Origin: Yuukianura sp. NJ FZ-2021
Taxonomy: Eukaryota
Assembly (NCBI GenBank): GCA_046563655.1
Contig: CM102286.1
Coordinates: 7,998,001 to 8,062,000 of the forward strand
Reading direction: 5' to 3'
DNA: 64,000 nucleotides
The position numbers were made by a program, and so were the translations under genes. Positions 2,532 to 56,191 of this stretch are shown in pieces (positions within the stretch are counted from its first letter, which is position 1; each line of letters starts with the position of its first letter). Below the pieces are notes generated by a model. It was not told the origin of the DNA and did no database searches. It worked only from the letters and a program-made list of their open reading frames with translations.

Positions 2532-5500
2532 ATGCGGGTAGTTGCCCTAATTAGTGGAGGGAAAGACAGCTGCTTTAATATGATGCAGTGTGTCGCAGCG
2601 GGACATGAAATCGTCGCTTTGGCAAATCTACAACCCCGGGACAAGGGTAACAAAGCATATTCATGTTTAAGATAATTCAATTAGGACAAGTATCTAATTT
2701 TGGTTCTCGGATTAATTTGTAGATGAACTTGACAGCTATATGTACCAGACAGTGGGACACGATGGCATTTCACTTTATGCGGAAGCGATGGGTTTACCAC
2801 TATTTCGAAGATACATCGAAGGGAATGCGCTAATTCAACAGAAGCAATACTCCCCAGTCGACGGAGACGAAGTCGAGGATCTGTACCTGCTTCTCCAGGA
2901 AGTGAAAGTAAGTTCTCACAAAAATCTTTTTTCATTGACTTCATTTGACATTCAATCTTTTGTTTTACCATTGATTAGGATTCTATTGACTTCGATGGCG
3001 TATCGGTTGGTGCTATTTTATCCGATTACCAGAGGATCCGGGTCGAAAATGTGTAAGTAAAGCCATGCTAAAGCGTTGTGTTTGTTTACTCCATGATTAC
3101 TAATATGCAGCTGTATCAAACTAATGCTCGAAAGATCGAATATGTTTTTTTACATTTTAGTTGTTCCAGACTTGGTTGCGTGAGTTTGGCCTATCTTTGG
3201 AGAAGGAATCAAACGGAACTACTCCAGGAAATGATTGATTGTGACATAAGCGCAATTATTATTAAAACGGCATCGCTAGGCTTGGATCCAGCTAATCATC
3301 TCGGACAAACCTTGAAGCAAATACAACCACACCTTCTGAAATCGGTACAGCATTCATAACTTCTGAATTTTGATGTTTCGTTCACCTTTTTCAATCATTA
3401 AATAAATTACTTTTGGGTTTTATTACAAATAGAAAGAGAAGTACTCCATCAATGTTTGCGGCGAGGGCGGAGAGTACGAAACGTTTACGCTTGATTGTCC
3501 CTTGTTTTTGAAATCAATCGTGATGTAAGTCGATAAAGGAAAGGTGATTCGTTTTCGAAATTGAAGAACATTTGTAATCATATTTCGTCTTATTTTCAGT
3601 GATGAACAAGAAACAGTGATTCACTCGAATGATGCCATTGCCCCAGTCGGATACTTAAAGCTAAACAAGTTACACCTCGTTGAAAAATCGGTTCGTGGAC
3701 GATATTTTAGCGTAACCTTACCACTGGTGTTACATTTGTTTGACTTTCATCTTAACTGTTGTTCGCTATTTCTTCCAGGATTGTACTAAACAGCATCACA
3801 ATGGATCGGTCGACATGTCTTACCGAAGGCAACGGGAAATGTTGGAGGGAGTTCCTGTTAAGGCGCCACTTGATTACTTGTCAGAACTCAGAGACTGTAA
3901 CAAAGCTGATTGCTGTGATGGTAAACCATAGCCATGCTAAATTGGAGTATCAGTTACAGAAGGAGCAGAGATTTATTTCTGACTTTTAATTCTTTAGGCC
4001 GAGATGAGATTTGTCCCGACCAAAAGCTTGAAGAAGCGAGTAACCTTGGCGTTGAAGCTTCTACTTTTAGTAGCAACAGTAGTAATTGTAGCGGAGGTGG
4101 TGGCGGTAATAGTGATGTGGAAGGTTTTGATACTCGAAGCAAAGGTGAGCTTGTGGTGGGTGCTTCAACTAGTACTCACAGGGATGGTGATTGTCCGAAA
4201 CCTAACGGCATTGGAACTAATGACTCTGGAATATCCAAATACACAACTAGGGACATTTTACCTATTCCGCTAGCTATTAAAGTAACGACGAACGAAGGCG
4301 GATGGAGTTGGATCACAGGAATTGGGGCCAAAGGCGCGGATGTCCACCAGGAATGTGGTGCAGATTTGCTCAACAATCCCATGACTGCTGCCTTGCAGCA
4401 ACTCAAGGGTGAGCATTTTTTTTTACCTAACTTAACCTACCATTTAGTTACAAATTGAATTCATTACTTAATTTTAATTTGATACCAACGCTTTAATATG
4501 AATTTTTTTAACCTTCAATCAGATACCTTGGAGGAGAGAAATATGACTTTGAAGAACGTGATTGCCACTTTCATGTACATCAGTTCCATGAGTGACTACA
4601 CAAAATATAACGCAGAATACATAAAGGTCTTTTCGTCCCAACCACCAGTTCGAGTCTGCGTTGAACTTCCATTGACCTTGGGTCAACCCCTCATCATGGA
4701 GGCTATTGCTTTTCCTGGTGAAGCCGAAGATGAAACGATTTCCCGCAAATCCATGCATGTTCAAGGTATCTCCCACTGGGCTCCGGCAAACATCGGCCCT
4801 TACAGTCAATCACAACAAGTGGGAGACATAATATACGTAGCCGGGCAAATCGGTCTTGTACCTGGAAGCATGAAACTTGTCGAAGGCGGGGTTCGATTAG
4901 AATGCAAACTGGCTTTGCGACACATTAACAGAATTCTGAGGTCAACGGATTCGAAGGTTGAGCTACGTGATGTGGTACAGGTATGTCTAGTTTTCATTCA
5001 CAATTTGATTCGAATGATTTGAGTAATGTTTGTGGCATGTTCCCAACGTATTCATTTGTAAATTATTATTTCGCAGGGAATCTGCTTCGTAACCGATGCT
5101 GCTTCCATTGTCAAATGCAGAGAGGAATGGGAAAAACGATCTAACAATGGCATCGTAGAGTATCTTGTAGTCCCACGGTTACCGCGAGATGCTACCGTCG
5201 AATGGTGTGTCTGGGTAACTAAAGCTTGCTGCAATCTGTTGTTCATTTTACAAAAGTTATTTCAATTTTAAGTTTAACGCAAAATCCCCTTTTTATAACT
5301 TTAGGCACACAAGCACAACTCGGCATTCGAATGTAAGTACTATCTTCTACATTCTACTCTATATGTGCTTTATATTGATTGAATCAAACAAAGTTCCGTA
5401 CTCACACTGTATAATTTTAGATGAAGAGACTGGATGCTACATCGGCTCAGGAGTAAAAGTGAAAATCATCCGACGATGGTGTTACGAGAGTCGAGTAGCA

Positions 5501-19600: not shown

Positions 19601-22600
19601 GAACTGCGCATGGTAGAGGGCTACCTGTAATCGTAGCAAGTAATCCACAGTGCAAATTACGACATTGACTGTTGTCGTATTTCCCGCTTGAGTTCGCAAG
19701 TAATTCTGCCAATCTAAAAAAAAAAGCTCATTTTGTCACTCTTCAATTGAAAACTGATTTTCATGTTTGTTTTGAACTGAAATTACCCAAGTTGTGCCCT
19801 TCACAAGTGAGTTGAATAAACCTGAATAGTGCACATGTAAATTCAGCATCGTGCATATTCTTTTCACCAGCAGCTCCTTCTGCTCCAACACCAAGTCCTT
19901 CTGCTTTCGTATTCCTTTCAAAGGCATCCAAATCCAAAACGCTGCAAGAGTTCATCAGACCGGCAATTGATGTAAAAAACCCAACTTCCTTTTTCTCTTT
20001 CAAATGATTGAGCATTCCCTGGAAGAATTATGCATTTAAAAATACAATAACAAAATTTCATTACAGAATGCTTGAGAATTCCAGGAGGTAAATAATTTTT
20101 TGTTACCATTTGGACATCAATATTTCCACCGCGCAGAATCGCAATTCCAAGTTCAAGTGTTTTCATGACCATGTCGGAGTTGACGCCTTTGCAAGCTGAA
20201 ATGTGCAGCAAAACCATTTCTGCCACGCCGCGATTTGCCAGTCGTGCTTGATGGAACAACAGTTTCTGCTTTTCCATTTCTTGTTCCTGAAATCATATTG
20301 TTTTGACTTGACATTAAAATTGGATAAAATCAAGTGAAAATTGTTTTACCATCATCTTTGTCATACTATGCTGCATGTGAAGCAAATAATTAGGTTGCAG
20401 TTAATTGTATTGTTATGTTAAATTCAATCACTCAAGTTCAATCTGTTTTGGAGAATTTGAAATCGCAACGAATGATTACATGAATAGACGCTCCCCCTTC
20501 ATCCCCCTCTCCTTCGGCCTCTTCATCCCCTTCCTCTTCTTCTTCGCCACAAGATTTGGCCATAACTTCCGCATAGCACATGTACAGTAGATCCTCTTGC
20601 AAAGCTCCACTGCGTTCTAAAATTAATTAAAACTTAATTAGTCTTAGTCAATGAACCGTAAATACTCGCTCTCACCTGTCATGGCTCCGCGACAGAACGT
20701 TGTTACGAGTTGCGTCACGGGATCAGGCTTGCCTTCCTCTTCCTCCGCCTCTTTTTTCTTCAACTCCGAGTCTTCAAAGGATTGCTACGAAAAAAGTAAC
20801 TCTTAAAGTTTTAAACATTTAGTACTTGATTTATTATTGAAAATTAAGCAGTGGTGTGATGCAATAAGTTATCATAGCGGGACTTACTGTCAGATCTTCT
20901 ATCATGACCTCTTGACCCACATTTTCATCGCCCAACCAAATTTCTCGATATGTACGCAAAAATAGATTGATAGCTCGGTGCCTACGGTAAAAATAAAGTA
21001 ATGTTACGGTATTTTGTGGCTATAACAAGAAACTGTTTAATCTGAAAAGAGTTAAGTAATGAAAAGATTTTAAACGCAATCAGTTAATACAGTACTGTTA
21101 GTTAGATATTAAAATTTACCGTCGTAAAGTGTAATATGGCGTACAAAAGAAACATGCCAAAGCGGCACGTCGTCGAGCACAGGACAAAATTTTTCTCCAA
21201 CCGCTTCGAGCTTTAGGACGATTTTCAGCCTGTTAAAGCGGAAGTTAGCTTTTCACACAATTTGACAAATTCCTAATAGTTAATTTTCAATTAAGAGTTA
21301 TTATTATGTTATTCGTTAATTTGTATTATTTATGTAATTCTATCAAGCATACCAAACCAAACAATACCAAAACTAAAAAAACAGAAAAACAATACAAGTA
21401 AAGAATACCTGTGCATAGAATGGAGGGAGGTTTGTCGAAAACCTATATAATAAATTAAATAATTAACTTAACGGTGAACAAAATATTTAACTAATAAAGG
21501 GGAATTCCTCACATTGGATTACTGCCTTTTTTCTTTGAGAGGATACGACGGAGCGATAAGCGCCTTTTTGTTGCTGTTGAGGATGATCAATCTGGGTCAA
21601 AACAAAATCAAAATTGAAACAAAAACGAACAAATAATCTAAGAAACTGGCGACTGGGAAGTTAGTGCAATTGAAATTACCATGTGAAGGCCAAAGAGTAC
21701 TTTGGCCATTGCCACAATCCGATCCACTAGCTCGTCCAGAAGTTGTTGTTTGGTCATGTTGACATTAGGTTGTTTAAGATTAATATCGTTTTCTTCCGCT
21801 GGTGACTTTTTACTTCCCAATTTAGAATAAAGGTGATGCTGCCAAGACATGGCGTCAGAAGGATCGATTTTATCCGGAAGTGTGAGCTGCGTCTTTGCAA
21901 AGTCAACGATTTCTGACTCCATCATTTTCTGTCAGCAAGTTTCAAGTAACATTTTAAAAGTTGTTTAATGGAATTCAAATATCATAAATTCTGAAATTTA
22001 CTTTGAGATATCGATCTTTGCAGTGCTGAACAAGTTCCTGCTCTCTTCCAGCAAATAAGTTTAAGCCAACTGGAAGAAGACGCTTTAGAGACGCAACCAT
22101 GAGACTGGACGCAAGCTCTTTATCCTTGTCTCTTTTCTTGTCCCGATGTTTCTTCTTCTTGATCTGTATAAAATATTATAAGTAGTATGAATTAATATAG
22201 TTATTTCACAATTACAATTATTAACTTTATAGATAAGTACCTTTCCGCCGGTTTGATTTTGAGCGGCGTCAGAAATCACAGCTCTCCTAGATGACGTTGG
22301 CATAATGAGAGCCATGTTGTCAATTTCATGAGCCGAAATAAAGTTAGTTTCTTCTTTGCGGAAAAACTAAGTTAAAATATTACACGCAGAATTAATATTT
22401 TCAAAATACTCGTTGCATAAGTATTTATGACCATTTTTGCCAGACCTGTGATTTTGACCAAAGGTTAAACATTTCTGCAACATGGTTGTACAAATGTTCG
22501 GCTTCACTTGTGTTATGTTTTAGCCAATTGTTCCTCTGAAGATCCACATATTTAATTAGGAGAGGGTAGAAGGCATAAATATCTCGGACAAGAAGTTGCC

Positions 22601-31600: not shown

Positions 31601-34600
31601 ACGGAATACATACTGCAGTAGTGCGTGTTAGATGTTAGCATGAAAATCCAATAACCGAATTGAAAGGTGAGAATAACAGGATTAGTTGAAAAGTGAAAGT
31701 TCTTATCACCTGAATGGAGACTTTCCTCGTTTCTTTTTATCCTCCTTTGAGTCCGGGCGGGGCGTTAGCTCTTTGTTACGTCTCGCATTAATTTGGAGCT
31801 CACTGGCAGCTCTCTCCATTTTCCCATGAGCAGAGGCAGTGGATCCATTCAGTTGACTTGTATCGTCGTAATCGAACATTTTAGAAGTGGATCCCGCCCT
31901 TGCCGATCTTGGTGGAAGTTTCACATTTTTTCCTATAGTTCCCGCTCTCTTTCGCCCGCGGTCGTCGTTTCCATTGACCATTCCAGCATCGTCCTCCGCT
32001 GCGTCTTCGGAGTAACCACGCTGCAGTTCTTCAATTATCGTTTCGGAAAATAAAATATCAAATTTCTAACTCAATTCTAATTCAATCTTATGATAATCCG
32101 AGGTTTCAAAAAAATGGAGAAAGTAATGGCCCTCACCCTTAATGTCATTCATGGTAAATCCGGATTTGAGCATGGATTGTTCCAAATTGTTATTACGGGA
32201 TGTGTAGCCAGTTGAGCGGAGACGATGTTGCCTGATTCTAATTTCCTGCCATCGACGTGCCTTCTCCTCTTCGCTGTAAATAAGGCATAAGATGTCAATC
32301 ATCTTAAAATAGATTTAGATTATGCCTTGTTAGTTTGAATTGAGAGAATTTGTCTTTGACATAGTGACATCTACATAATTATTCTTACTCGATGAACTCA
32401 TCATGACAGATTACTGGAAGAGAAAGTCTGAGGAACTCCCAGTTGGCTTTCTCCATGGTTTCAAATGTTTTGTGACTTATGCGAAGACTTGGCGGGGTGT
32501 CCGACCCAGCAGGCAAACGACTCACTTCGATGTTCGCATCCGGAGATTCATCCACGTTTTCGAAAATGGGCTGGTCTTTTGTATACCAAAAGGTCATAGG
32601 TCGGTTCATATTCCTACAGCGTACAAAGTTCACAGAATAAATGCGACAGTTGCTCTCAAGTATGTCGCTTTCTTCAGTCACATGAAGATGGATGAATTTG
32701 GTGTGATGTGAATGAAACATCTTCATTTAACAACTTACACACAGAAGGGCTCGTAGCCTTCTTGGAGACCGCAGAGCGTAAAGAAGCGAAGTGCATTCAC
32801 GTCATGTCCAAAGGACAATTTGGCGCGTTGTCCTACTCCAAGGGTGCATGCTGGAACGAATGCTTGGCCCTGCACATCCGTAAAGGCAGTTTCTCCTCCC
32901 ATGGCGTCCATGAGCAACTCACCGTTAAGGGAAAAGCCTATTAATTTTTATTAGGAAATTAAAGTCGATGTTGTTTAAAGTCGATTAAGTTGAAGTAAAG
33001 TGAAAGCAAAGCACTTGGGCATCAAGCTGACTTCACAACATTAAACAGCATGTGTACTTATTAAACTTTGCTCCTGCATTTTCAAGTTTGTCTGACTTTT
33101 TGGAAATGTTTCTAAAAATTTTTATTTTTTGAGTTGGTTTTCGAAAAGCTTTGCGTTTACATTTGGTTTGTTAGTAAACTAAAACTGATATTTTTGTTTT
33201 TGTTTAAAACTGATAACTATCTAATGAAACTTTTGAAGATGAAAGTATTCGAAAAAAAAATAAACGTTAGGTATAGGAAAGCTATAGGTTTCTGGAAACA
33301 AAATGGCGGGAATGTTAACACCACTTTACGTTTGAACTTACTGATTGTTTTGTCAATTAAGTCAAGGAGAACACCAATGACATCTCCAGCAGCCCATTGT
33401 TTACCATACGACTCCGTTCCGCCCATGAAGCATTTTTCCTCCTTTGAAATCAAAAGTGGAAGGATTGTGCAAGTTGCGGCTAATTAGGTAAACATTTTGA
33501 TTCTCAAAGTGGACATTGTTAAGCAGCGCCACTTTTGCTGAGACGTTAGCAACGTAGCGCAAACATGGAATTTTTGCGTATGAAATTAAAATTGCGCTGG
33601 CAATAACATAAAACAGGCGTTTATAAAATTTGCAATTTTGGACAACATGAAGCAAGTAACGATTCCTCGTCGATGCCGCTTTTGTGAAACGTGTGTCAGA
33701 ATTAGTGAACAATTGACTAAACTAAGGTTAAACTCACGAATTGTTTGATTAGTTAGATCTAACATGCAACCCATTGTATCTCCTACTCTCCAATTCCGCC
33801 CAAAATATTCTCGACAGGTCTGATGGGTCTTGACACACTGTATTCACACGGACGGAAAAGTCATTTTTTTGTTATTAGTAGATATATTTGCTTTTTGCTG
33901 GCTTTTTCGAGGCTTTTTCAAAATTGTCATTGGTCTTTTTCAAAAAAAGTGAAAGCAAAGGAAAATGGCAAGTCACGCGAACGGCTTAATTCGAGGGAGG
34001 GATGAGGAGATTCCACATTCTGGATTGAATTACTCTGCGTGCATCTCTACTACCTCTTCATCAATTTTTAGAAAAATTCTAGAAGTGGCACTTACGTTAA
34101 ATCCATCAAAAGCCCATGAATATTCATCGCTACCAATTTGTTTTCCAGGCTTGCAGTCAACACTCATCCAACCGACACGCATCGGACCGGCCGTCAGGAC
34201 TTCAAACTCGAAATACCTAAAAAGTCAAGGGCAAAGTGGATTTCAGTTTTTTTTTTTTTGGATTTTGACTTTCTCTCTCTTTTTTGATGATTTTTGGTTT
34301 TTATTGATTTGATTTAGTACCATTTGCCGGAAGTGACTTCGTAAGTTTTCTCGGCTCGATAAGTTCTGTAGTCGGCTTGTGATTTGTCCTCAGATTCTGC
34401 TTTCACTGGAACAAGAACAAAAGAGAAAGCGTTAGAAATGATTTGTTTTCTATAGGCTTTTCACATGGGATAATTCTGGAAGATCTTATATAGAAAACCT
34501 TCATGGGTTTCTCCAGCGGGTGGTTCGAGCAGATAACCGTAAACCAGCAAAGTCCTTACGGTCTCACTTGCGGTGTCCCTATAAAACGTAATGGAGGATA

Positions 34601-40600: not shown

Positions 40601-43600
40601 GGAATATTGGAATTATGACAAAAGTACGTGACAAAATGCATGACTACGGGAGGATGACAGTCACAAAATCTGGCAATAAATGACGTCAGGTTTTCCATTG
40701 TTTTTGCCTAAAGGAATTGTAAAACGGAACTCGTACCCATACATGGCCATTGTGGGGGTTATTCCCCACAAATCCTCCCATAGCCACTTCGGTTCCCTTT
40801 CCCCCTTCTTCTCCCCCTTCGTCCTTCCAGCAGCAGCACAACAACAACTCCACGTCCTCACCACCAAAACCACTCGCCCACCAATCAGATGCACGGGAAG
40901 TTGCATCATCCATCACTTGGACACGCATCCCGTCATCATCATCATCACCACTGTCCACTTCTTCCTCCACACAGTCTCTCCCTACTCGTCACTCTGCCCG
41001 GATCTTGTCCCGTCTCTCTCTCCACGTCTCCTCCATCTTGGATTGGCCACTGGACCACGCCGGAACTACTGTTGTGACCCGGACTGACCTCTACAAGCCC
41101 CACCGGACCAGTACCTGGTCAATCCTGCACAGGACCGAGCCCCACCAACCTCTACACTTCATCAATTCAACATTTGGCCCTCATTAGACCGTAAACTCTA
41201 TCCTAATTACTGTAAATAAAGTTCATTGTCCATTTGTAGCCATTGTCGTGACCTCTGCCCCACTTTATTGTTCGAGTGGCCTGTGTGCCAGTCGTCGGGG
41301 CATTGCAACCCCTCAGGTGGGATGCTCAGCCGGGAAACGAGCCACCGTGACCTCACCGCAACCGAATCGTGAATCATGCCACAAGGAGCCCTGTGACCCC
41401 CGTGACCTCTCCAAAAACTAATCAAAATTTTTTTTTTTAATAGCAGTATTTGAAAAAATATTGGTTTCGAAATCATGCTCATTCTTTCTCGATTTTTTTC
41501 AGATCTCCTGAGCGAGCCACCAACCTGCCAGTAGCCAGTAGCCACGAGCCACCATCATCCAAAAAGCCCACGAGGAGCCGACAAAAGCCACAACCGCCAC
41601 GTCACACCCACTCTTCATCTCCACGCTCCAAGTCCACGCTCCAACTCATCACTTCCTGCCTCCACGTCATCTCGTCTTTTCTTCACTGCCTCCTCCGTGC
41701 AGTCACTGACCGATTGAGGCAAGGTCACAAAGGTCAGCCGTTTTCTTTTGGTTATCCCCCCTCCCACTGCGCGAGCGTTTTTTTAACGAAAAGTAGCAGC
41801 CCCGCGTAAAGTTCAAATTCAAAAATCCTAACGTCCCCCTGTTCAAAATTTTTCAAATTTTCAAAAACTTAGCCGTTTTCCTTCAAATTTAAATTTCTTT
41901 TTCAAAAAGCGTAACGCCCCACCCAAACTAAAGTACCCCAGTCTTCCCTGCAAAGGTCAAGAGGCTATTCCACTTTCCCTCCCTTCTGAAATTTTGGTCT
42001 GAAAATTTTTGAAACATAACCTAAATTCGAAAAACGTTAATCCCTACCCAACCCCTGTCAAAATTTTTTCTAAAATTAAAGTAGTTTGAAATTTTTCGGT
42101 TTTCAAAATTTTTTTGAATTGAGCCTGCCCCACCTAGTCCCACCATTGAACAACGTTACCAAATTCACATTTTCCTTACCCCTTAACAGAACTCTGCCCA
42201 AATTTTTCTTGATTTCCGACACTTAGCAGAATTCCGATTTTTGTTTACCCCTACCTAACCTAATCCCCAGAGTCAGCCGATTCTACTGATTTTTCAAGTC
42301 GCACGTAACTGCGATATCCCCCATTCCCCTGAATAGTCGGATTTTCCAGAATTTGGCTAAAAACTATTCCTAATTCCTAAATTACGTTACGTTCTAACTT
42401 TACATTAATTAAATTCAGATTTTCGTCCAAACTTCAAAAATTAAAAGCGGCTTTTCGTCCCAAACCCCTGCCCGATTTTCCCAAAATTCTAAAAACTTAA
42501 AACTTTTCAAGTCGGTGTGCGTTTAGTCAGTGAGTGAGTAGGTACTACCTATTCCCCTGACTTCGCCGATTCTTCAGATAACGCGATTTTACGTCGTGCC
42601 CTCCCCTATTGAAGTTCCCATTCCAATTTTTCGGTTCTTTTTCTGAAAATTAAGCTCAGTAATGCAAATTATTGAGTGGTTTCTTTGGCTCGTCGGTTTC
42701 TTAATGTGGTTTGGCATTGCATCGGTTGGCGTACGACTCGTTTTTCTCGTTCTTCTTGTCCGATTGGTTCTTTATTTTTTCTAAAGTTCTGTTTTGGAGG
42801 AATTTGATTGTAAAATCATAGCCCCTAGACAGTAGCTAATTCTACAAACCCTATTTTTTTCAAATTCCCATTTCTTTCTTTTTCTAGATTTAAGCTTACA
42901 AATATTCATATCCAAAATAAGTTCATATTTAATACATTTTTTGAAGTATTTATAGAAAGTCCCTGCCCAGTCCAGAAAAGCAAGCGATGTACTCCCCATT
43001 CCTTTACATTGTCTTGATCGTTGTGATTGCTACGATTGGTGTCATTGTTCAACGGATTGTCGTTTTCTTTTTGGTCTCTCTTCTCCTACATTTTCTTGAG
43101 TAAAGCTTAAGTGCTGAAAAGCATTTAAGTTATTTTGAAGTCCCTGCAAATGCAAATTTTTTGGTCCTTTCTAAAGACAGTCGTATTTCTCGGCTTAGCA
43201 GCATTCTTCGGGATCTGCTTCATCCTTTTGGTCCTTGAAACTGTGTATCTCATTGCAACATTCCTCTCCCACATTACTTATTCCTGTCTAATAGCGACAT
43301 TTTCGGTTGTTTCTGACTATATCGCCCTCCACATTATCCCAGTCTTCTACTTACGGCAAGCTCCGAGGACTTATCGTTACTTCTTCCGGGTCCTCATTGG
43401 CACCGAGACTTACTACTTCCTAGCCCTAATTGTACGAGTCCTATACTACCACTGGGATTTCTTCGGTCCAATTTACCGGTGGTTGTTCAAAGCATTTGCT
43501 AACGCCCAAGGCTGGTTAGTGTTCGAGTCAGAACCCCGTGTAGACCCGAGACGCCGTCTCTAAGCGATTTCAAAAATGTTGTCGTACTTTGCGAGACCAT

Positions 43601-46600
43601 TTGCCTCTACCCCCCAACAAGATGGACAGTCCCCTCAACATATCTTGTCGCAATCTACAATTCCCATGGATACTGCTACCCAGACTCTTCCTCCTACTCT
43701 CAATTTGTCAACTCAAGGTCAACCTGCTGCAGTTCATTTTGCCCCAACACAAGCCCAATTCGTTCCTACACCCCCCACCCCAGCAAGTACTATTGCTAGC
43801 CCTGCAGCTGTACAAGCTTCCATTCCCCAAATTTTTCGAAATTTCCCCCCACCCGACCCAAGCAAGCAGGACATCAAGATATTCAAACACATTCGACAGT
43901 ACGATGGAATGAGCGATCCTGCTGAATACATGGCCCGATACAAATACGACTTGGGCGGATCAGGCTTTGGTGCATTCGGAGCGCTTAGTCATTTTGACAG
44001 AGTGTTGACGGGTGTTGCTAGTGCCTGGTTTGTTTCCATTTGGCCCCATTTCCGTGAGCAGTTGCAAGTTCCCTACGCAGACGCAGAAAACATTTGGAGC
44101 AAATTTGAAAAAGAATTTGTTTCCCATTTTTCCCTTAAAGAGCGACGGGAGGTTTTCAAAGCTCAGAGTAAAGCTCTGCGGTTCAAAATAGGGGACAACA
44201 TTGATCAGTATGTAGCTGAGAAAATCCAAATTCTTTCCAAACTTGATCCCATGATGCCAGAATCCCGGAAGGTTGAACAATTAGTTCGTGGTCTCCCACA
44301 CGAGCTGGAACAAGCATTTGTCATGCAGAATATCCAGACCCCTTCCGAATTCCAGAAGATCCTGAGACGAGTTGCTGATGTCCATACCCGCTCTAAAGGA
44401 AGTTCCGATCCAATGGTTTCTCTTCGTGGACTTGAAACTCAAATGGCTCCCGCCATTCCAAATGCTAATTTCCCTACAACTGTTCCCTACCAAGTCCAGC
44501 AGTACCAACGCCCTCCTGCTCAAGCCCAACCAGCAGTTCAAACTGCTCCCCAGCCCGATCGCCCTTTCCCTCCACAACAGAATCGTCGTTCTGATGATGG
44601 AAAGCCAATTTGCGATTACTGCAACAATATTGGACATATTGTTCGATACTGTCACAAATGGTGGTGGAGCCAAGGCATTGACCCTTTGACCCGCAACTGT
44701 AGACCACTGCGCCCCCGAAACAATCCTAATAATCAACAACCCCAGCAGCTGGCTAGTTATAGCCAAGCTGTTCAACGTCCCTTCCCTAACGTTGATTCAA
44801 GACCACTACAAACCAGCCCACATCAGCCGCAGTCATTTCAAAATCCACAAACTGGACCACCAGCTCAGGAAAACCAATGGGTTCCTTCGATGATGTCTGC
44901 TTTCTCTACAATGACGGATCTTCTTACAAACATCGCATCCGCCGTACTTCCAAAACCTCCGGAAAACCAATAGAGCTGCCGTTGCAGGGACGTCAGCTTC
45001 TATTACCACCCAATCCAGTCTCTCAAATTAAGGTACAAGCCCCACCCAGGGTTTGTCCAACACGTCCCAAATCCCGAAAAATCAAACAACCTAAATTTCA
45101 AACCCACAAGAATTGTTCAGCTTTTGGCAGGAAGCACAATTCTAAAATTCCCATTATTCCAGAAGAGTTTCTTTCCAAACTACAAGCTCTTTTTGACCAC
45201 CACCGAACTTGTCCTAAATCAAATCCCCAGCCTATTTCACCTTTGGTCGTTGGGGAGGCTACTACAACCTTCCCAAACTTTTGTTCTGACGCTGCAGTCC
45301 CTACAGTCCCTACTTCTCTTCGTAACTCCGCCGCTACTAATCCTACTTCCCTTCTGGGACCTACAACTACAACTACAACCGCCGCCGCTACTACTACTTC
45401 TGTTCTTCCCCCTACTCAACCTACCGCTGCAGTACCAAAGTTTGTTTCTGTTTGTGTTGGCCCTTCTGAACCTTGCCCTTCCGCTTTTGTGTGTGGCCCT
45501 ACTCAACTCAACCCACTAGCCGTTTCTCTCACTTCCAAATTTGGCATTAGCCCCTCCAATGTAAGCCGAGTCGCTGACTGGGTAAATTATTCCGCCCCTG
45601 AGTTCTCAGCTGCAAATTCCAAAGTTCCAGATCCCACTTCTTTCGATTTTGATTCCCCACCTAAGTCCCCAAGTCACGATTCCGAGTTTCCTTCGGGAAT
45701 CTCAGCTGCAAAGTTCATTTCCGGAATTGACTCCACCCCCCATTCTACTTTCCATACCGATGTTGTCTTTGGTTCTACGACTCTTCGAGTCCTGTGTGAT
45801 ACAGGTGCTTCTCTTTGTTGTGTCCACCCTGATTTTCTAAGGAGGTTCCCCAATATTGTTTCCCAAGCGGTTGATGTTCAACCTGTTCGAGTCAAACTTT
45901 CTTTTGGTTCTTACGTTCGTTGTGGTTCCCCCCAAACCACAATGATCACTTTCTCAATTGCTGGCGTCTCTTTCCAATACCCCTTTTACATCTTCCAACA
46001 CCTTTCAAATGAGATCGTTTTGGGCTCAGATTTCCTCCGTTCCCAACATTTTCTTTTGGATCCCGCGAATGAGCGCCTTGTAAAAGGTGAACTCCCGTGT
46101 ACAGACCTCAGAAATGAGTATGTTTGTATTCCAAAATCCCAAGTCCCTGTCCTTAACAAATTAACTTTGTCAGAAACTGAAGAAGTTTCTGATAGTCCCA
46201 GTATTCCAAAGTCTTCGGAAGCAGAACCAAAGTCGATCCCTCCCAAATGTACAGCCAGTCCCAAAAACCAAAACCCTCTAGCTATTGACATGGCTCTGAA
46301 TTCATCTCAGTCCCCAGATACTTCAAATTCCCCTTCCCTACTTGACTCCGAAGCGTCCTTCGTGAGCAATTCGAATTTATCTCAAAATTCTACTCCCCCT
46401 CCGTGCCTGAGACTGGCCAGGTCAATCCTCATTAACCCAAGAACAATGAAACGAGTCAGTGTAAAAACTGATTTACCTTTCACCGGAGACATTTTGGTTT
46501 CCCCTCGTCGTGAGCTCCAACACGCAAAACATATTGCCATTGGGAATTCCATTTCTACGCTTAAAGATGGCAGCGGAGTTACGTTCTTGTGGAATTTGAG

Positions 46601-49600
46601 TGACCGCCCTGTGAAACTTCTTCAAAACATCTCTATTGGCACCTTCGAACCCTTCGCAGAGTCTTCCGTACTCTGTGACCTTGATGAATTCGACCATGTT
46701 AGCTCTAAATCCTCCCAATCTTCCCTCCCAGCGCACGAGATCTTAGGACTTTCGGTTAATGATGACGCTGAAATAGCAACACTGAAACTGCAAAAGAGGA
46801 TCGAGGCGTTCCAGATTTCAAATTCCCTAACCCCTGAACAGCGCCAAATTATGCAAGATTTTCTTGTAGCGAATTTGGATGTTTTCAATTTTGATCCTGC
46901 TACCCTTGGCCGTACTCACCTAACCACCCACAAAATCGACACAGGTTCTGCTAAACCGATTGCTTCCCATCCCCACAGAACCGGATTTACAGAGCGGAGG
47001 GAAATTCAAAACCAAGTCGAGCGTCTTTTGAATCTCAATGCTATTACTCCGAGCGATAGCCCTTGGTGTTCCCCAGTCCTTCTGGTCAAAAAGCCCGACG
47101 AAAGTTGGCGGTTTTGTGTTGACTTTCGTAAGGTCAACGCAGTGACTCGGAAAGATTCTTACCCCCTTCCCCGAATTGATGATACCCTCGACAGACTTAA
47201 TGGCGCCAAGTATTTTTCCTCCATGGATTGTGACCAAGCGTATTACCAGGTTGAAGTGGAGCCTGAGGACCGAGAAAAGACCAGTTTTGTGACCCCCGAC
47301 GGACAATATGAGTTCGTTGTAATGCCCTTTGGTTTGACCAATGCCCCCGCTACTTGGCAACGCCTAATTGACAATGTCTTAGGTCGTTTGAAGTGGTCCA
47401 TAGCACTCGTTTATTTAGACGATGTGGTTTGCTACTCCCGAACTTTTGAAGAGCATTTGGATCACTTAGCCCAAATTTTTTGTGCCCTTAGAAGAGCTGG
47501 TCTGAGTCTTAAACCCAAAAAGTGTAACTTTGGCGAAGATTCCCTAAAATTCCTTGGCCATATTGTTTCCAGAAATGGAATTGCAGTTGACCCCAACAAA
47601 ACAAAAGCAGTTCGTGAATTCCCTACTCCCACGACTGTTAGAGGTGTCCGTTCCTTCATTGGTCTTTGCAGTTACTATCGCCGATTTATCGAGGGTTTTG
47701 CCGAAATTGCCCGTCCCCTTCATCTTCTCGTTGCTGCGAAACGTGGTACCCCTTTTCATTGGACCCCCGAAGCCGAAACAGCGTTTCAGACGCTAAAAGA
47801 CAAATTAACATCTCCCCCTGTCCTTGCGTTCCCTGATGAAGAAGCCGAAACGTCCGTCCATTGTGATGCGTCTGGACTCGGTTTTGGAGCGACCCTTTGC
47901 CAAATTCAGGACGGAAAAGAGAGAGTGGTTGCTTATGCTTCCAGAGCGGTTTCCCCCTCCGAATCAAAATTTGGAACCCCCCAATTGGAAATGAAGGCTT
48001 TTGTTTGGGCTGTAGAGAAATTTCGACCGTATTTATACGGCCGTCATTTTAAAGTTGTCACTGACCACCATTCCCTTTGTGACATGCTAAAATTTAAAGA
48101 CCCCTATGGCCAAATTTCCCGTTGGTCTTTAGCCCTCCAACCTTATGATTTTACCGTAATTCATAAGAGTGGTCGTGTTCACACCGATGCTGATCCCCTT
48201 TCCCGTAACCCAGTTGACCCAGCCCCTCTGACACAGACCATTTGGCCATTGAACATCATCTTCTGGCCTTAGCGGTTTCCCCTGAATCCCCACGAAGAGT
48301 TAGAGATGCAAAACTGAAAGATCTCCAGCTTAAAGAGCCAGAATGGCTTCCTGTCATTGAGTATTTGAAAGCAGAACAATCTGGTACTTCCCATAGTTTG
48401 CCCGAACCCAAGAAATTGAGAGAGCACAGTCTTCGTGATGGCATTTTGTACCGGATGAACTACTCGGAATTTGGAAATCTCTGGCGTCTTTGTCTCCCGA
48501 AATCCCTCCGAAAATCGTCCATGGAATCCGTACATAACGACTCCCTTAGCCACCTCGGCTTACACAAGACTTGGCATCTTCTACGCTCCAGGTTTTATTG
48601 GCCCCGGATGTATCGCGATGTGGTGAAATTTGTCACGTCGTGCCACTTGTGTCAGATCCATAATAGACGGAATTTTGCTCTCCCGCCAAATAGCGCTGGT
48701 CTTGACGTTCCCGCCATTCCATTCCACACCATTGCCCTAGACTACTTAGGCCCATTCCCCGTCACAGCGAGACGTAACAAGTACATTCTGACAGTAATTG
48801 ATCTCCATACCCGTTACGTAGAAGCCTGGCCAGTTCCCGCAGCAGATTCTGCTCAAGCGATTAAAGTACTTAACAAACACGTCCTTTTTCGCCACGGAAT
48901 TCCCAAAATCATTCTGTCAGACCGTGGTACGGTTTTCCTTTCCGACGAATTTGAAGATTTCCTTTCCCTCCACGCCATTGAACACAGATCCACGACTTCC
49001 TATCATCCCAAGTCTAACGGCGTCTGTGAACGACATAACGGCACGGTAAAGTCAGTAATCGCCAAATTCGTAAGTGAAAACCACAAGGATTGGGATCTAC
49101 ATCTCCCCAGGGCGGTATTTTCCATTAATTGTTCAGTACATCGTGTCACTAATTTTTCTCCTTATTTTCTGGTCTTTGGTAGGGAGCCGGTTTTGCCGGT
49201 TGACAGGCTGTTCCCCCTTCCCCGGGAATATTTAGAGCCCGACGATGCCCTGGACCGATTATTTGTTGCGAATAACGTAGCCCACGAGCTATCCCGTGAG
49301 CAGCAGCTTCTCAGAGTTAAGGCCCAATTACAGATCCGTTTCCCGACTTATGTCGTTGGTATGAAAGTTCTGCTCAGGAACTTTCAGCGGAAAAAGGGTC
49401 GTGTCGGCAAATTTACGAAGAAGTGGATTGGCCCTTACAAAGTCATTGACGTCCTCCATAACGGCACTGTTCGAATTACTTCTGTTCCCCCTCGGCAGCC
49501 TCACGAGACTGTCGTGAACGTTCAGCGCCTTAAACCTTATCATCAGCGTGTCTCTGACACGTCTGATGCAGACAGTAGTTCCTCTGAGTCGTCTGATAAC

Positions 49601-52600
49601 GATTTTGTCCCTCCTCCAGTGTCTGACCCTGATTTGTCCTCTACATTACCAAAATTGCCAATTCCGACTGAGCAAAATGACCCTCTTACGCTTCCCGTAA
49701 CGCCAAACCAAAATTCTGACCCCCCTAATGTTGACTTAAATGACCAAAATCAAAGCCGTGACCCAGAAATCCTAATTCCACCAATTTTACTCGCCCAGGA
49801 TACCCTGCATCCCGTTGCGAGTGAAATCCCCGTATTTTGCGCCCCTGCCAGCGTAAAAACCCCGATTTCTAGTCGTCCGAAACGCGCGGCTTACACTAAA
49901 GCTCTGTCTTGCATTTCCCGCCTTGCGAAGCCAAAGAAGCGCTGACTCAGTAATTAAATACTGATGCTGTTCTTTTTATATATTTTTAGATGGACCCCCC
50001 TCACGATGATGACATGATGGACGAAGGAGATGACGCCTCTGAGGGCATTGCCGAGATCGATTTGGCTGCAGAAGATGACCTTTTGAACTCTCCTCCTCAA
50101 AATGATGCTGTTTCTCGGTCTTCTTCATCTTCGTCTTCGTCTCCGTCTCCTACCGTCATTGCTGCTCCAATTTCTACGCCTGCCATTGCACCGATTCCGG
50201 ATGACGACTGGGATATGCCCACTGCTGCTGCTTCCCCTCCAAAATCCCCGAAAAAGCTCAATCGGCAGTTGTTTTCCCCAAGCTCTAGCAGCTTCCAACC
50301 GAATTCCCCCCAAAAGTCACTCCAGGACATGGTTTCGGCTCCTCCTCCAGCGCCACGCCCAAGACTTGCTTCGGTCGTCGTGGTTGTTCCCCCCAAGTCC
50401 CAGGATTCTGCCACGTTTCGTCGTCCTCGTGACCCAGCCCCAAAATCGAAGCTACAGGCTCAGCGTCATGGATCTGCGAAGATTCCCTCGCTTCTGGATT
50501 TGCAGTTTCCAAACGGACCCCCAAAACAACCCCCAGTTGGTCGTTCGCGATCCAGCTCCCCTACAGCTTTGACACGCAAAATGTCAAATGTTTCCTTGTC
50601 CCCAAGAACCCCTAAAAACCCCCAAAACCCTGGACCCAGCACTTCATCAAAATCTGTTCCCCCTGTTCGAGCTCAATTCCGTTCCAATCGGCCTTCTCCA
50701 TACAACGCTCGTCCAGCTCCTCCCCGAAATCGCTCAGCTTCTCCCCAGATTCGGCCACTTTCTCCAAATTCACGTCCAGTTTCTCCAGCCACTTCTTCAA
50801 CTTCACCAATTCCGTCCACTTCAACTTCAATTACCGTTCCTGTCACTTCGGCCGCTTCACAATTCCCATTTTCATCAATTCCCCCCGGATATTTCCCCTA
50901 CTACACCCTTCTCCCGAATTCAGCAACTTCTGTTACCTTCACTTTCAACTCCCCACCAACTCCAATTTTAACCCCTCCCCCAGCTCCAGTAGTTTCAGCT
51001 CCAGCAGCTTCAGCTCCCCCAGCTCCTGTACAAGGACGTTTTCCCCCTGTCCCACCTAATCCACCAGCTCCGAATCGGCAGCAGAGACGTGCTCGTTGGT
51101 GGGCCCTGAACTCGGCCAATGCTCCACCTCCGCCGAGGAAGAATTCCCCAAAACGCCGAGATCCTCCAGCTCCACCAAAATAACCCCCACGTCTTCTTCA
51201 AATGTCGCCGGGACGTCTCCAGGTCGTTGGGGACCTGTGGGGGTTATTCCCCACAAATCCTCCCATAGCCACTTCGGTTCCCTTTCCCCCTTCTTCTCCC
51301 CCTTCGTCCTTCCAGCAGCAGCACAACAACAACTCCACGTCCTCACCACCAAAACCACTCGCCCACCAATCAGATGCACGGGAAGTTGCATCATCCATCA
51401 CTTGGACACGCATCCCGTCATCATCATCATCACCACTGTCCACTTCTTCCTCCACACAGTCTCTCCCTACTCGTCACTCTGCCCGGATCTTGTCCCGTCT
51501 CTCTCTCCACGTCTCCTCCATCTTGGATTGGCCACTGGACCACGCCGGAACTACTGTTGTGACCCGGACTGACCTCTACAAGCCCCACCGGACCAGTACC
51601 TGGTCAATCCTGCACAGGACCGAGCCCCACCAACCTCTACACTTCATCAATTCAACATTTGGCCCTCATTAGACCGTAAACTCTATCCTAATTACTGTAA
51701 ATAAAGTTCATTGTCCATTTGTAGCCATTGTCGTGACCTCTGCCCCACTTTATTGTTCGAGTGGCCTGTGTGCCAGTCGTCGGGGCATTGCAACCCCTCA
51801 CCATGTATCAATCAGTATCATCAAAGTCAGGTTTTTGACGCGATGTTGTAAAACTTTTGACTCATGGCGAAGCGTCAAAGACCGATAAATTGCATTTTCA
51901 CATCACAAGTTCGCACATCTCACACGTATCTATTGCAGATTTGGCAGATAAGATTTGTTAACCGCAGAGTTAGCAAATAAACAAACTAAATTCTATACAA
52001 ACAAAATCGGTCGTTTTACTTTGAACAGTTATTCCGTTAACTACGAAATTGAGGTTTATGGTTTAAGTTCATTGGATCTGATCTGAATATTAAATGAAAA
52101 CCTAAAAGGTCAAAGTTTTGTGACTAATTGTAAGTCGTAGCGATTACTTCGAGACGAATATTTTTGTTTTTTGCGTAATTTTATCAATTTGTTGGCAATG
52201 TCGAGTCAACAAGTCAGAACAGTTAAATCACTTTGAGATAACTAAGGTCATGAGTCATAATTTTTAAATTAAGCTGTAAACAGTAACGACGGAAATCGTG
52301 TAAAAGTGAAAACTAACGTTTGGGTTAGGTTATGCGAGATTTTGCGATTCCACTACGTAGTAAGTAACGAGACAAAGTGAGTAAGAAGGAAAGTTTAATT
52401 AAAGCAGTAGCATGAAATGTGGCTAAAAGGTCCTTTGTATTACTTTAAACTACAACGACATAAAAAGATGAGGAAAACTAATGAAACAAAATGGAAAGTT
52501 GAAGAGGGAAGAGTTGGAGAAAGTAGTTGCAGAAGATTTCTTAGAAGAAAGTGAAAGCAAATTTTCTTTCGCTTAATCAAAAGAAAAAGAAGTTTAGAAG

Positions 52601-54876: not shown

Positions 54877-56191
54877 TCAGTTACGGTCGGTCTCCCGCAT
54901 TTTCTGCTCCACTACATCGTAAGCATATTCAGATGAATCGGTAGCCTGTAAAAACGCAAAAAGTAATAAAATTAGACCATCAGTGTGCCCAATAGTTTCC
55001 AGATGTTATTAGGGCAGAGTATGGAAACAGTACCTGGATGGTTTTATGCACACCGACGAGGACTTTCTTCAATGCATCGAAACTGGAAGTATTCAACATC
55101 TTAGACCGTGTCTTTGCCGTATCCGGACACCAGTTCATGAGGAACAATTTTTGCTTCTTTGTAGCCTAAAAAGAAATAGATTAGGATTAATAAACCACCA
55201 ATTCATGAGTTGTAAGAATTCCGATATACTGTGAACAAGTCACGATCATTACCTCAGTGGTCCCTTGACACTGGTGAGAATATTCAAAGTCGAAGAGTCC
55301 GTAACGGCAGGAGGCAGGACCATCTTCTTGAAGGGCCTTGATAAAATCGTCATAAGTAGCATCACGTGGACCTAGACAAAAGGAAATCGGTTATACATGA
55401 AGACATACGAACAGTGTGTCCATTTCCAAGACCACGTCATCAAAAAACAAGGCATGTTCGGTATGTGCTCACCTAGGTGCTCTACTTCGATTTGCTTCTC
55501 ATCCTTGATGTAGTAAATGACAAAGCGATGCTTCTTGTCCTTCTTGATCTCATCGTATTTAACCTTACAATCATCCGCTACTGTGACACCGGAAGACTGA
55601 AATAGAATAAGAATACTGTTCACTTTAACCGAACTTAAAAAGGCAGCAGTGCGGTTGTCGTCAGGAAATCGTTGTCTTCGAGCAGGCCAATCAAGCAAAT
55701 GTCGATTCGTTACTTAACGTTAATTTAGGAATTTAGCTACTTCCGGATGAAAATTCATGGTTTGCCAGCATGTTAGATGTACGTCAAGGAGTACAGTATC
55801 GATACCTTTACGTTAATCCTGATAAAAACAATAATAAGAGCAAAAAGCCGGGATCTTTATCTTAAGATCATTCAGGATCTAAGGAAACTGTAATGGTCAC
55901 AAATGTAGGGGATGGGCTACGGTTGGGTGGAAAGTCATTGTTAAATTTAAACTGACATAACATGACTAAACGTCAAAATTTAAGGATTAAGATAACCTCA
56001 TCTGACCCAACCATGCAAGTACGAGTAAGCCGCCCCTGTCTTTTCGGCTTCCCTATGAATCATAGGCCCATGACAATGTAATTCCTTCAACTGTCGATTT
56101 CTAGCGACTTAATTGGCTACGCTCCTTGCCAGTTTGGTTTTTAGAAAGCCGGGGTCAGTAGTGCGTTTAGTATTGTTAAGTGACTTACCAT
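54877..56191 (-). CDS. tsr: Cofilin/actin-depolymerizing factor (twinstar-like)
   Basis: ATG-only first coding exon (56189-56191, ATG|gtaagt); SSGVTVADDCKVKYDEIKKDKKHRFVIYYIKDEKQIEVE, CRYGLFDFEYSHQCQGT, WCPDTAKTRSKMLNTSSFDALKKSLVG, end QKMRETDRN*. Confidence 0.95.

Follow-up and report, generated by a model that had tools for sequence, protein, structure and literature searches.

Our analyses of a 64,000 nucleotide (nt) stretch of the genome of Yuukianura sp. NJ FZ-2021 (contig CM102286.1, positions 7,998,001 to 8,062,000; hereafter the window, with positions counted from its first letter) have identified a ryanodine receptor (RyR) gene on the minus strand in which two alternative cassettes, termed here A and B, are located in tandem between two constitutive exons, each predicted to encode a version of the main calmodulin-binding helix of the channel. 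It is highly likely that this locus represents this species' copy of the second mutually exclusive splice site conserved in arthropod RyRs, and on the evidence of its sequence and conservation the exon pair is very probably functional. The pair is the orthologue of an event that has already been annotated and published, and its identification is sound but not new. A second mutually exclusive site of the insect RyR was described by Troczka et al. (2015; Gene 556:106; PMC4309888, section 3.4 and legend to Figure 3), who aligned the isoforms that NCBI predicts for Apis, Musca, Ceratitis, and Drosophila, noted that the alternative segment covers a predicted calmodulin-binding site, and proposed that it serves the tuning of calmodulin sensitivity. 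The present work adds the occurrence of the pair in a springtail-like lineage, indications of its early-arthropod age, the reciprocal retention of anchor residues in the two forms, a B form with a Trp...Phe anchor pair, and an apparently young intron within A. The evidence for these statements and their evolutionary significance are discussed below.

The assignment of the gene as a RyR rests on homology to named RyRs through its upstream constitutive exon (acceptor AG at 21930-21929, donor GT at 21679-21678), which matches RyR fragments as well as full-length RyRs carrying the precomputed Pfam domains PF02026, PF06459, PF08454, PF01365, and PF00520. This exon is 76% identical to an Allacma fusca RyR fragment (P0004) and 86, 77, and 70% identical, respectively, to the loci L001, L002, and L005 from the metagenome contigs described below, and the downstream constitutive exon scores 77 bits against a downstream-exon hidden Markov model (HMM). 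The interval between them is bounded by an exon ending in ..KVL(F/Y)GLH(M/I/V) and an exon beginning with (R)H(R/S)A(I/V)N, and it holds first an A-type cassette (IDHPQ...QRKRAV.ACF...SLHSLP) and then a B-type cassette (A..P...W..(L/V)LS.AR(K/R)RAA.AC(L)...P(L/F)Y). Route A joins two exons, A1 and A2 (79 + 34 = 113 nt), and route B consists of a single exon of 110 nt (Table 1). AG and GT are present at every splice site of both routes, and a CTAAC branch-point-like motif is located approximately 18 nt upstream of the exon B acceptor. The two routes that the initial annotation of this DNA had drawn between the exons at 21680 and 20981 are correct in their coordinates, splice sites, lengths, and peptides.

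Table 1. Positions of the cassette exons of the RyR gene, their flanking exons and introns, and other elements in the window; slashes mark exon boundaries.
Feature	Position	Strand	Length and characteristics
Upstream constitutive RyR exon	21928-21680	minus	249 nt, phase 0 to 0, ends ..FGLHM, then GT
Exon A1, opening portion of the A-type (IDHPQ...) cassette	21591-21513	minus	79 nt, cag/ATT...CAAT/gtgag
Intron within the A cassette	21512-21443	minus	70 nt
Exon A2, micro-exon, end of the A cassette	21442-21409	minus	34 nt, tatag/GTT...CACAG/gtatt
Intron A2 to B	21408-21230	minus	179 nt
Exon B, B-type cassette with the Trp...Phe anchor pair	21229-21120	minus	110 nt, aacag/GCT...CGACG/gtaaa
Intron B to downstream exon	21119-20982	minus	138 nt
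Downstream constitutive exon, starts (R)HRAIN..	20981-20888	minus	94 nt, entered in phase 2, cgtag/GCACCG...ACA/gtaagt
Tandem exon of SPRY2-like pair	33738-33837	minus	100 nt, AG/GT sites
Tandem exon of SPRY2-like pair	33342-33441	minus	100 nt, AG/GT sites
Long terminal repeat (LTR) retrotransposon	~40750-51535	plus	
LTR retrotransposon open reading frame, Pfam gag	43564-44973	plus	
LTR retrotransposon open reading frame, aspartyl protease, reverse transcriptase, RNase H	44796-48272	plus	
LTR retrotransposon open reading frame, integrase	48218-49945	plus	
Candidate cofilin/ADF-like open reading frame	55372-55713	minus	

The reading frame of the locus admits one cassette at a time. When the exons were joined by coordinate and all combinations of A1, A2, and B were read into the downstream exon, the frame stayed open for A1+A2 (113 nt) and for B alone (110 nt) only, and all six other combinations (viz. 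A1+A2+B, neither, A1, A2, A1+B, and A2+B) led to a premature stop, so that the joint inclusion of both routes does break the frame, as had initially been claimed. The downstream exon was taken to 20889 in this test, one base short of its end, which leaves the outcome unchanged. Only single inclusion is open because each cassette adds a length of 2 mod 3 between an upstream exon that is left in phase 0 and a downstream exon that is entered in phase 2. The splicing of the 70-nt intron within A is likewise needed, since A1 read through without splicing runs into the stop codon TAA. In the mechanism that we propose, the pre-mRNA would take either the A cassette or the B cassette between the two constitutive exons; double inclusion, skipping, and hybrid routes would give premature stops, and the resulting transcripts would presumably be removed by nonsense-mediated decay. 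The choice of cassette may be regulated by tissue or stage, and the swap would exchange a segment of 37-38 residues, the main calmodulin-binding helix, with the likely effect of an isoform-specific tuning of the calmodulin regulation of the channel, as proposed earlier by Troczka et al. (2015). Exchanging this helix is a plausible way to give different tissues different Ca2+ feedback from one gene.

Both cassettes are recognized by profiles of their respective types. The B-type HMM was trained on five distinct arthropod segments taken from annotation, to the exclusion of the window, and gives the exon B open reading frame (ORF) a score of 50.4 bits (E 1e-13 for the set of ORFs searched); the A-type HMM gives 57 bits for A1 (profile positions 1-27) and 13 bits for A2. 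When the B peptide of 36 residues (P0001) was compared by phmmer with all chains in the PDB, 26 distinct sequences were returned at E <= 10, all of which are ryanodine receptors. The best of these matches is 2bcx_B ("Ryanodine receptor 1", a 30-residue chain, E 2.7e-5), from an entry which we take to be the RyR1 peptide bound to calmodulin, and the alignment over its residues 4-29 places W on W, RRRA on RRRA, ACF on ACF, and TP.Y on TP.Y. In full-length receptors the B peptide aligns to RyR1 3617-3644 and RyR2 3584-3611, and the 26-residue A1 peptide aligns to RyR2 3576-3600, at an E value of only 1.7. Because B and A1 align to the same RyR1/RyR2 segment, both routes appear to encode the same helix. 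The initial annotation had equated this segment with the vertebrate calmodulin-binding helix and had described a B form that keeps the Trp and the RRRA..ACF and TP.Y patterns and has three Cys residues, next to an A form with Tyr; the sequences agree with this description in each respect. The homologous vertebrate segment is the helix at RyR1 3614-3643 and RyR2 3581-3610 (PDB 2bcx, 6y4o), from which the arthropod arrangement differs in that, among the vertebrate sequences compared, each RyR paralogue has one form and no alternative cassette, whereas arthropods appear to obtain two forms from one gene by splicing.

To follow the pair in genomic DNA, metagenome contigs were scanned with an alignment of the upstream exon, which yielded 29 loci, in which A, B, and the downstream exon were then sought by profile searches. 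An A exon is found in 23 of the 29 loci, the profile search finding none in L003, L010, L012, L016, L017, and L018, and a B exon lies downstream of A in nine of them (L002, L004, L005, L007, L011, L024, L025, L026, and L029), which bears out the expectation that exon B should be conserved in the orthologous intron of relatives. L024-26 are the same sequence over the searched region, and the B-bearing loci are thus seven distinct ones; the order A then B is common to the window, L002, L004, L005, L007, L011, L024, and L029. The downstream exon is also held by 13 loci, of which eight have B in between, three are intronless, and two are without B. Exon boundaries were searched for B in eight sequences, the window included, and a consensus AG/GTA-type donor is present exactly at the end of the B match in all eight. 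The length of exon B is 110 nt in the window, L002, L005, L011, and L024, and 116 nt in L004; the most likely length is 113 nt in L007 (alternatively 104 or 107 nt) and 107 nt in L029 (alternatively 86 or 71 nt). The loci L008, L009, and L028 hold intronless RyR ORFs of up to 14.4 kb, with the A cassette fused to both flanking exons, and these have the appearance of assembled transcripts or of retrocopies. An A peptide identical to that of L008 and L009 is encoded in L011, which also has introns and a B exon and looks like their genomic counterpart.

The two forms are also recovered from annotated proteins, the hits among which were classed by the sequence that follows the ..GLH(M/I/V) junction. 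Among 53 hits of 148-2000 amino acids (aa), one is B-type (P0054, from the sea spider Nymphon striatum) and 12 are clearly A-type, and the rest run on into intron sequence or end at the junction. The 46 hits of 2805-5000 aa comprise six of B-type (Eumeta, Timema cristinae, Timema bartmani, Kerria lacca, Penaeus japonicus X4, and Drosophila montana X15), 28 of A-type, one in which A is accompanied by a fragment of B (Homalodisca, labelled LOW QUALITY), six without the junction motif, four of which are vertebrate, and five in which the segment is absent or read otherwise. A further 28 new hits near 4952 aa divide into 20 of A-type and eight of B-type (Macrobrachium nipponense X23, M. rosenbergii X26, M. 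rosenbergii X4, Venturia canescens X10, Gryllus bimaculatus, Ranatra chinensis, Cryptotermes secundus X6, and Periplaneta americana X7), with none of any other kind. In M. rosenbergii the RyR isoforms X4 and X26 carry B and X16-X25 carry A, and in M. nipponense X23 carries B and X18, X19, X21, and X22 carry A. Both Macrobrachium species thus have A and B isoforms annotated from one gene, and the pair is therefore already part of the public annotation.

The evolution of the two cassettes was compared by means of pairwise proportions of synonymous (pS) and nonsynonymous (pN) differences between the window and its counterparts in L005 and L002. For exon B, 20 of 36 residues are identical to L005 (pS 0.64, pN 0.33) and 18 of 36 to L002 (pS 0.99, pN 0.35); for exon A the corresponding values are 27 of 37 (pS 0.82, pN 0.21) and 25 of 37 (pS 0.99, pN 0.22). 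Synonymous sites are at or near saturation in these comparisons, and since exon B nevertheless keeps its frame, splice sites, length, and motif, the pattern fits purifying selection on B. The opposite possibility is that exon B is in this species a decaying duplicate, inherited from the ancestral pair and no longer spliced in, which we regard as improbable. Its faster evolution relative to A, its Phe at a position where 18 of 19 B exons have Leu, and the loss of B in L022, L027, and Myzus, together with the fact that the routes are read here from genomic DNA, speak for such decay. Against it stand an open 110-nt frame with a consensus acceptor and donor and a branch-point-like motif, an exon length equal to that in L002, L005, L011, and L024, pN values well under the saturated pS, and a score of 50 bits against a profile from which the window's B was excluded; moreover, the surrounding introns are diverged or unalignable even when compared with the closest relative, L001.

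Several observations weigh against the view that the locus is a working copy of the conserved splice site. Routes A and B are read in this species from genomic sequence, and the use of both cassettes, one per transcript, is supported by the RefSeq isoform models of other species only. Exon B changes about twice as fast as exon A (nonsynonymous divergence, dN, of 0.43-0.47 vs. 0.24-0.26 relative to L005 and L002), and at conserved positions the B sequence of the window does not follow the consensus of its type, reading ACFFC where other B exons read ACLRS or ACLLS. The 2 mod 3 lengths of the cassettes in the other loci are partly so by construction, in-frame AG acceptors and phase-matched GT donors having been required in the boundary search. 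An inverted-repeat search of positions 20900-21760 found no convincing docking/selector pairing, and no conserved intronic pairing, that could enforce exclusivity; the 13 short AT-rich inverted pairs that it returned (10-19 nt, 72-92% complementary) are unconvincing, and intronic base pairing was rejected as the mechanism. The phylogenetic tree discussed below rests on 38 columns only. Lastly, B is missing in two of the ten intron-bearing loci that hold the whole interval, the B-profile search finding none between A and the downstream exon in L022 (390 nt) and L027 (70 nt), and Troczka et al. (2015; PMC4309888) did not find the alternative exon in Myzus persicae. From these absences it follows that lineages can lose B. 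The A exons of L022 and L027 are chelicerate-like and retain Trp and FRM, and the absence of B from these two loci suggests that some arachnid-like lineages have lost B or never had it.

The division of the A cassette into two exons is a separate matter from the pair itself. The initial annotation had called the geometry of two exons versus one unusual, and this is so, for the boundary search for A, which covered 14 loci (duplicates, intronless loci, one partial locus, and L001 being left out), found a single 113-nt exon in all 14 and the splitting intron in none of them. The closest relative, L001, has the intron at the same position, with a length of 79 nt as against 70 nt and a diverged sequence, and it shares with the window the T/GTGAG donor after A1 and the CACAG/GTA donor after A2, the exons themselves being well conserved; the L001 contig ends before the position where B could appear. 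Because the intron is present only in the window and L001, the geometry reflects a young, lineage-specific intron in an old cassette and is no feature of the splice switch itself.

The relationships of the cassettes were examined in a tree of 42 rows (24 A, 14 B, and four named amphibian RyR3 segments) and 38 columns, the root of which is not established. In this tree the 24 A rows lie on one side of a branch with support 99/97 and the 14 B rows form one group at 95/95, several of the B branches being long. The B exon of the window clusters with those of L002 and L005 (96/84), and the A exons of the latter two loci join Allacma (82/76). With the springtail Allacma fusca also providing the best named match of the upstream exon, the window is probably collembolan or close to that group. 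The separation of the A and B rows into distinct groups implies that the duplication predates the split of the sampled lineages; it would predate the chelicerate-pancrustacean split if the Nymphon model is right, and the B-type segments in decapods and the sea spider suggest that the pair is older than the insects. A springtail-like lineage, taken together with these decapod and sea-spider segments, points to an origin early in the arthropods. No statement on an origin of the exon pair before insects was found in the literature searched, which did not extend to the supplements of PMC6026295.

The two forms differ systematically in the residues with which such a helix may engage calmodulin. Anchor residues were counted over distinct sequences (36 A and 19 B), the Nymphon B and the L029 A being left unscored by the anchor pattern; the Nymphon B reads W...L by eye. 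The first anchor of the A cassette is Tyr in 17 sequences, Trp in 11, and another residue in eight, and the second is Phe in all 36. For the B cassette, the first anchor is Trp in 18 of 19 and the second is Leu in 18 of 19, the one Phe being that of the window. The window has Tyr...Phe in A and Trp...Phe in B, in both cases 16 residues apart, in distinction to the Trp...Leu of other arthropod B forms, and both of its cassettes are predicted to place two hydrophobic anchors 16 residues apart in a basic helix, as in PDB 2bcx. A similar partition is seen in three motifs, all of which are present in three of three amphibian RyR3 segments: the (D/E)(H/Q/L)P start (A 33/34, B 0/20), the core QR(K/R)(K/R)AV (A 27/34, B 0/20), and P(L/F/Y)(Y/F) (A 0/34, B 16/20). 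By these anchor and motif counts, each cassette keeps a different subset of the features that are combined in vertebrate RyRs, and non-arthropod representatives point the same way, though as a hint only.

These counts allow a tentative proposal, namely that the A/B pair arose before the chelicerate/pancrustacean split, that it divides the ancestral helix between its copies, and that splicing toggles which lobe of calmodulin is tightly anchored. On this proposal, A would retain (D/E)HP at its start, QRKRAV in its core, and Phe as an anchor but usually lose the Trp, and B would retain Trp as an anchor, K(L/V)LS at the turn, and P(L/F)Y at its end, with its Phe changed to Leu; the window's B, with both Trp and Phe, could then conceivably mark a lineage-specific return to a vertebrate-like double anchor. 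We found no part of this proposal in the literature searched. If true, such a toggle would constitute a single-gene equivalent of the differences between vertebrate RyR paralogues, and the reciprocal retention of anchors provides a concrete hypothesis for peptide binding.

It is also conceivable, though rather unlikely, that the pair is real and used but that its main role lies in intramolecular helix contacts or in another partner and not in the tuning of calmodulin binding. Both forms are basic amphipathic helices, hydrophobic at both anchors, and may bind calmodulin similarly, and they differ most in their flanks (N-terminal IDHPQ vs. A..P., C-terminal SLHSLP vs. P(L/F)Y). However, the retention of anchors is reciprocal and systematic (Phe in A, 36/36; Trp in B, 18/19), which points to the calmodulin anchors as the selected feature, and the calmodulin reading is the only one in print (PMC4309888). 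The initial annotation had, in addition, suggested that redox regulation is switched by the choice of cassette, exon B bringing in extra cysteines; the window's B has three Cys as compared with one in A. This suggestion has fared poorly, and we consider it very improbable: three Cys residues occur in one of 19 distinct B exons, that of the window, the others having two (ten exons), one (seven), or none (one), and the closest B exons, those of L002 and L005, have one each. The Cys beside the second anchor is, moreover, common to A and B. As no other B has three Cys and the anchor Cys is present in both forms, a redox role would be species-specific at best. S100A1, which the initial annotation had named beside calmodulin as a ligand of the segment, belongs to a vertebrate protein family, and in this respect the vertebrate analogy is probably not applicable to arthropods.

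The correspondence with the site described by Troczka et al. (2015) extends to its position, which is flanked by the ..FGLHM and HRAIN.. exons and corresponds to residues 3720-3756 of the Myzus RyR, to the two cassette types, and to the proposed role in calmodulin sensitivity, and the B-type signature recurs in isoforms listed by RefSeq for Penaeus, Macrobrachium, Venturia, Cryptotermes, Periplaneta, and Drosophila montana. It differs in that the published account covers the predicted isoforms of four insects, whereas the present locus is from a springtail-like genome, has its A cassette split by an extra intron, and has Phe in place of Leu at the second anchor of B. The initial annotation knew of no description of the event; it is, however, described in PMC4309888 with the same inference regarding calmodulin, and its novelty, which was to be given up if arthropod RyR isoforms were already annotated with the exon, is lost, the RefSeq isoforms carrying both forms. 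Since the idea is in print for insects and already underlies isoform models in RefSeq, the window opens no new question. The second exclusive site is also noted in section 3.3 of Troczka et al. (2018; PMC6026295). In the portions of the literature searched, published support for the calmodulin-site pair is computational only, and the portions covered of PMC3787966, PMC4204029, PMC5778984, PMC3989282, PMC5459510, PMC7644089, and PMC5451214 deal with the SPRY2 pair or with unrelated splicing only. The same literature, the supplements of PMC6026295 lying outside the search, yielded no work that examines how the A and B forms function and no paper on a springtail RyR.

A second pair of tandem 100-nt exons is present in the window (Table 1), the peptides of which share 41% identity across 32 residues (E 7e-10). 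The pair looks like the SPRY2 mutually exclusive pair (a/b) of the insect RyR, and on this identification the gene would carry both of the known exclusive sites. The SPRY2 pair resembles the calmodulin-site pair in belonging to the same gene and in consisting of tandem duplicated exons of equal phase; it differs in affecting another domain (the second SPRY) and, according to the parts of the literature covered, in having been validated by cloning in several insects.

Two other elements were observed in the window. An LTR retrotransposon, with direct repeats of at least 300 nt that are 100% identical and 10,485 nt apart, is located on the strand opposite to RyR, adjoining or inside the 5' region of the gene, and the identity of its repeats suggests that its insertion may be recent. 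The ORF at 55372-55713, the peptide of which contains VKYDEIKKDKKHRFVIYYIKDEKQIEVEH, was named by eye only and is presumably a cofilin/ADF-like candidate.

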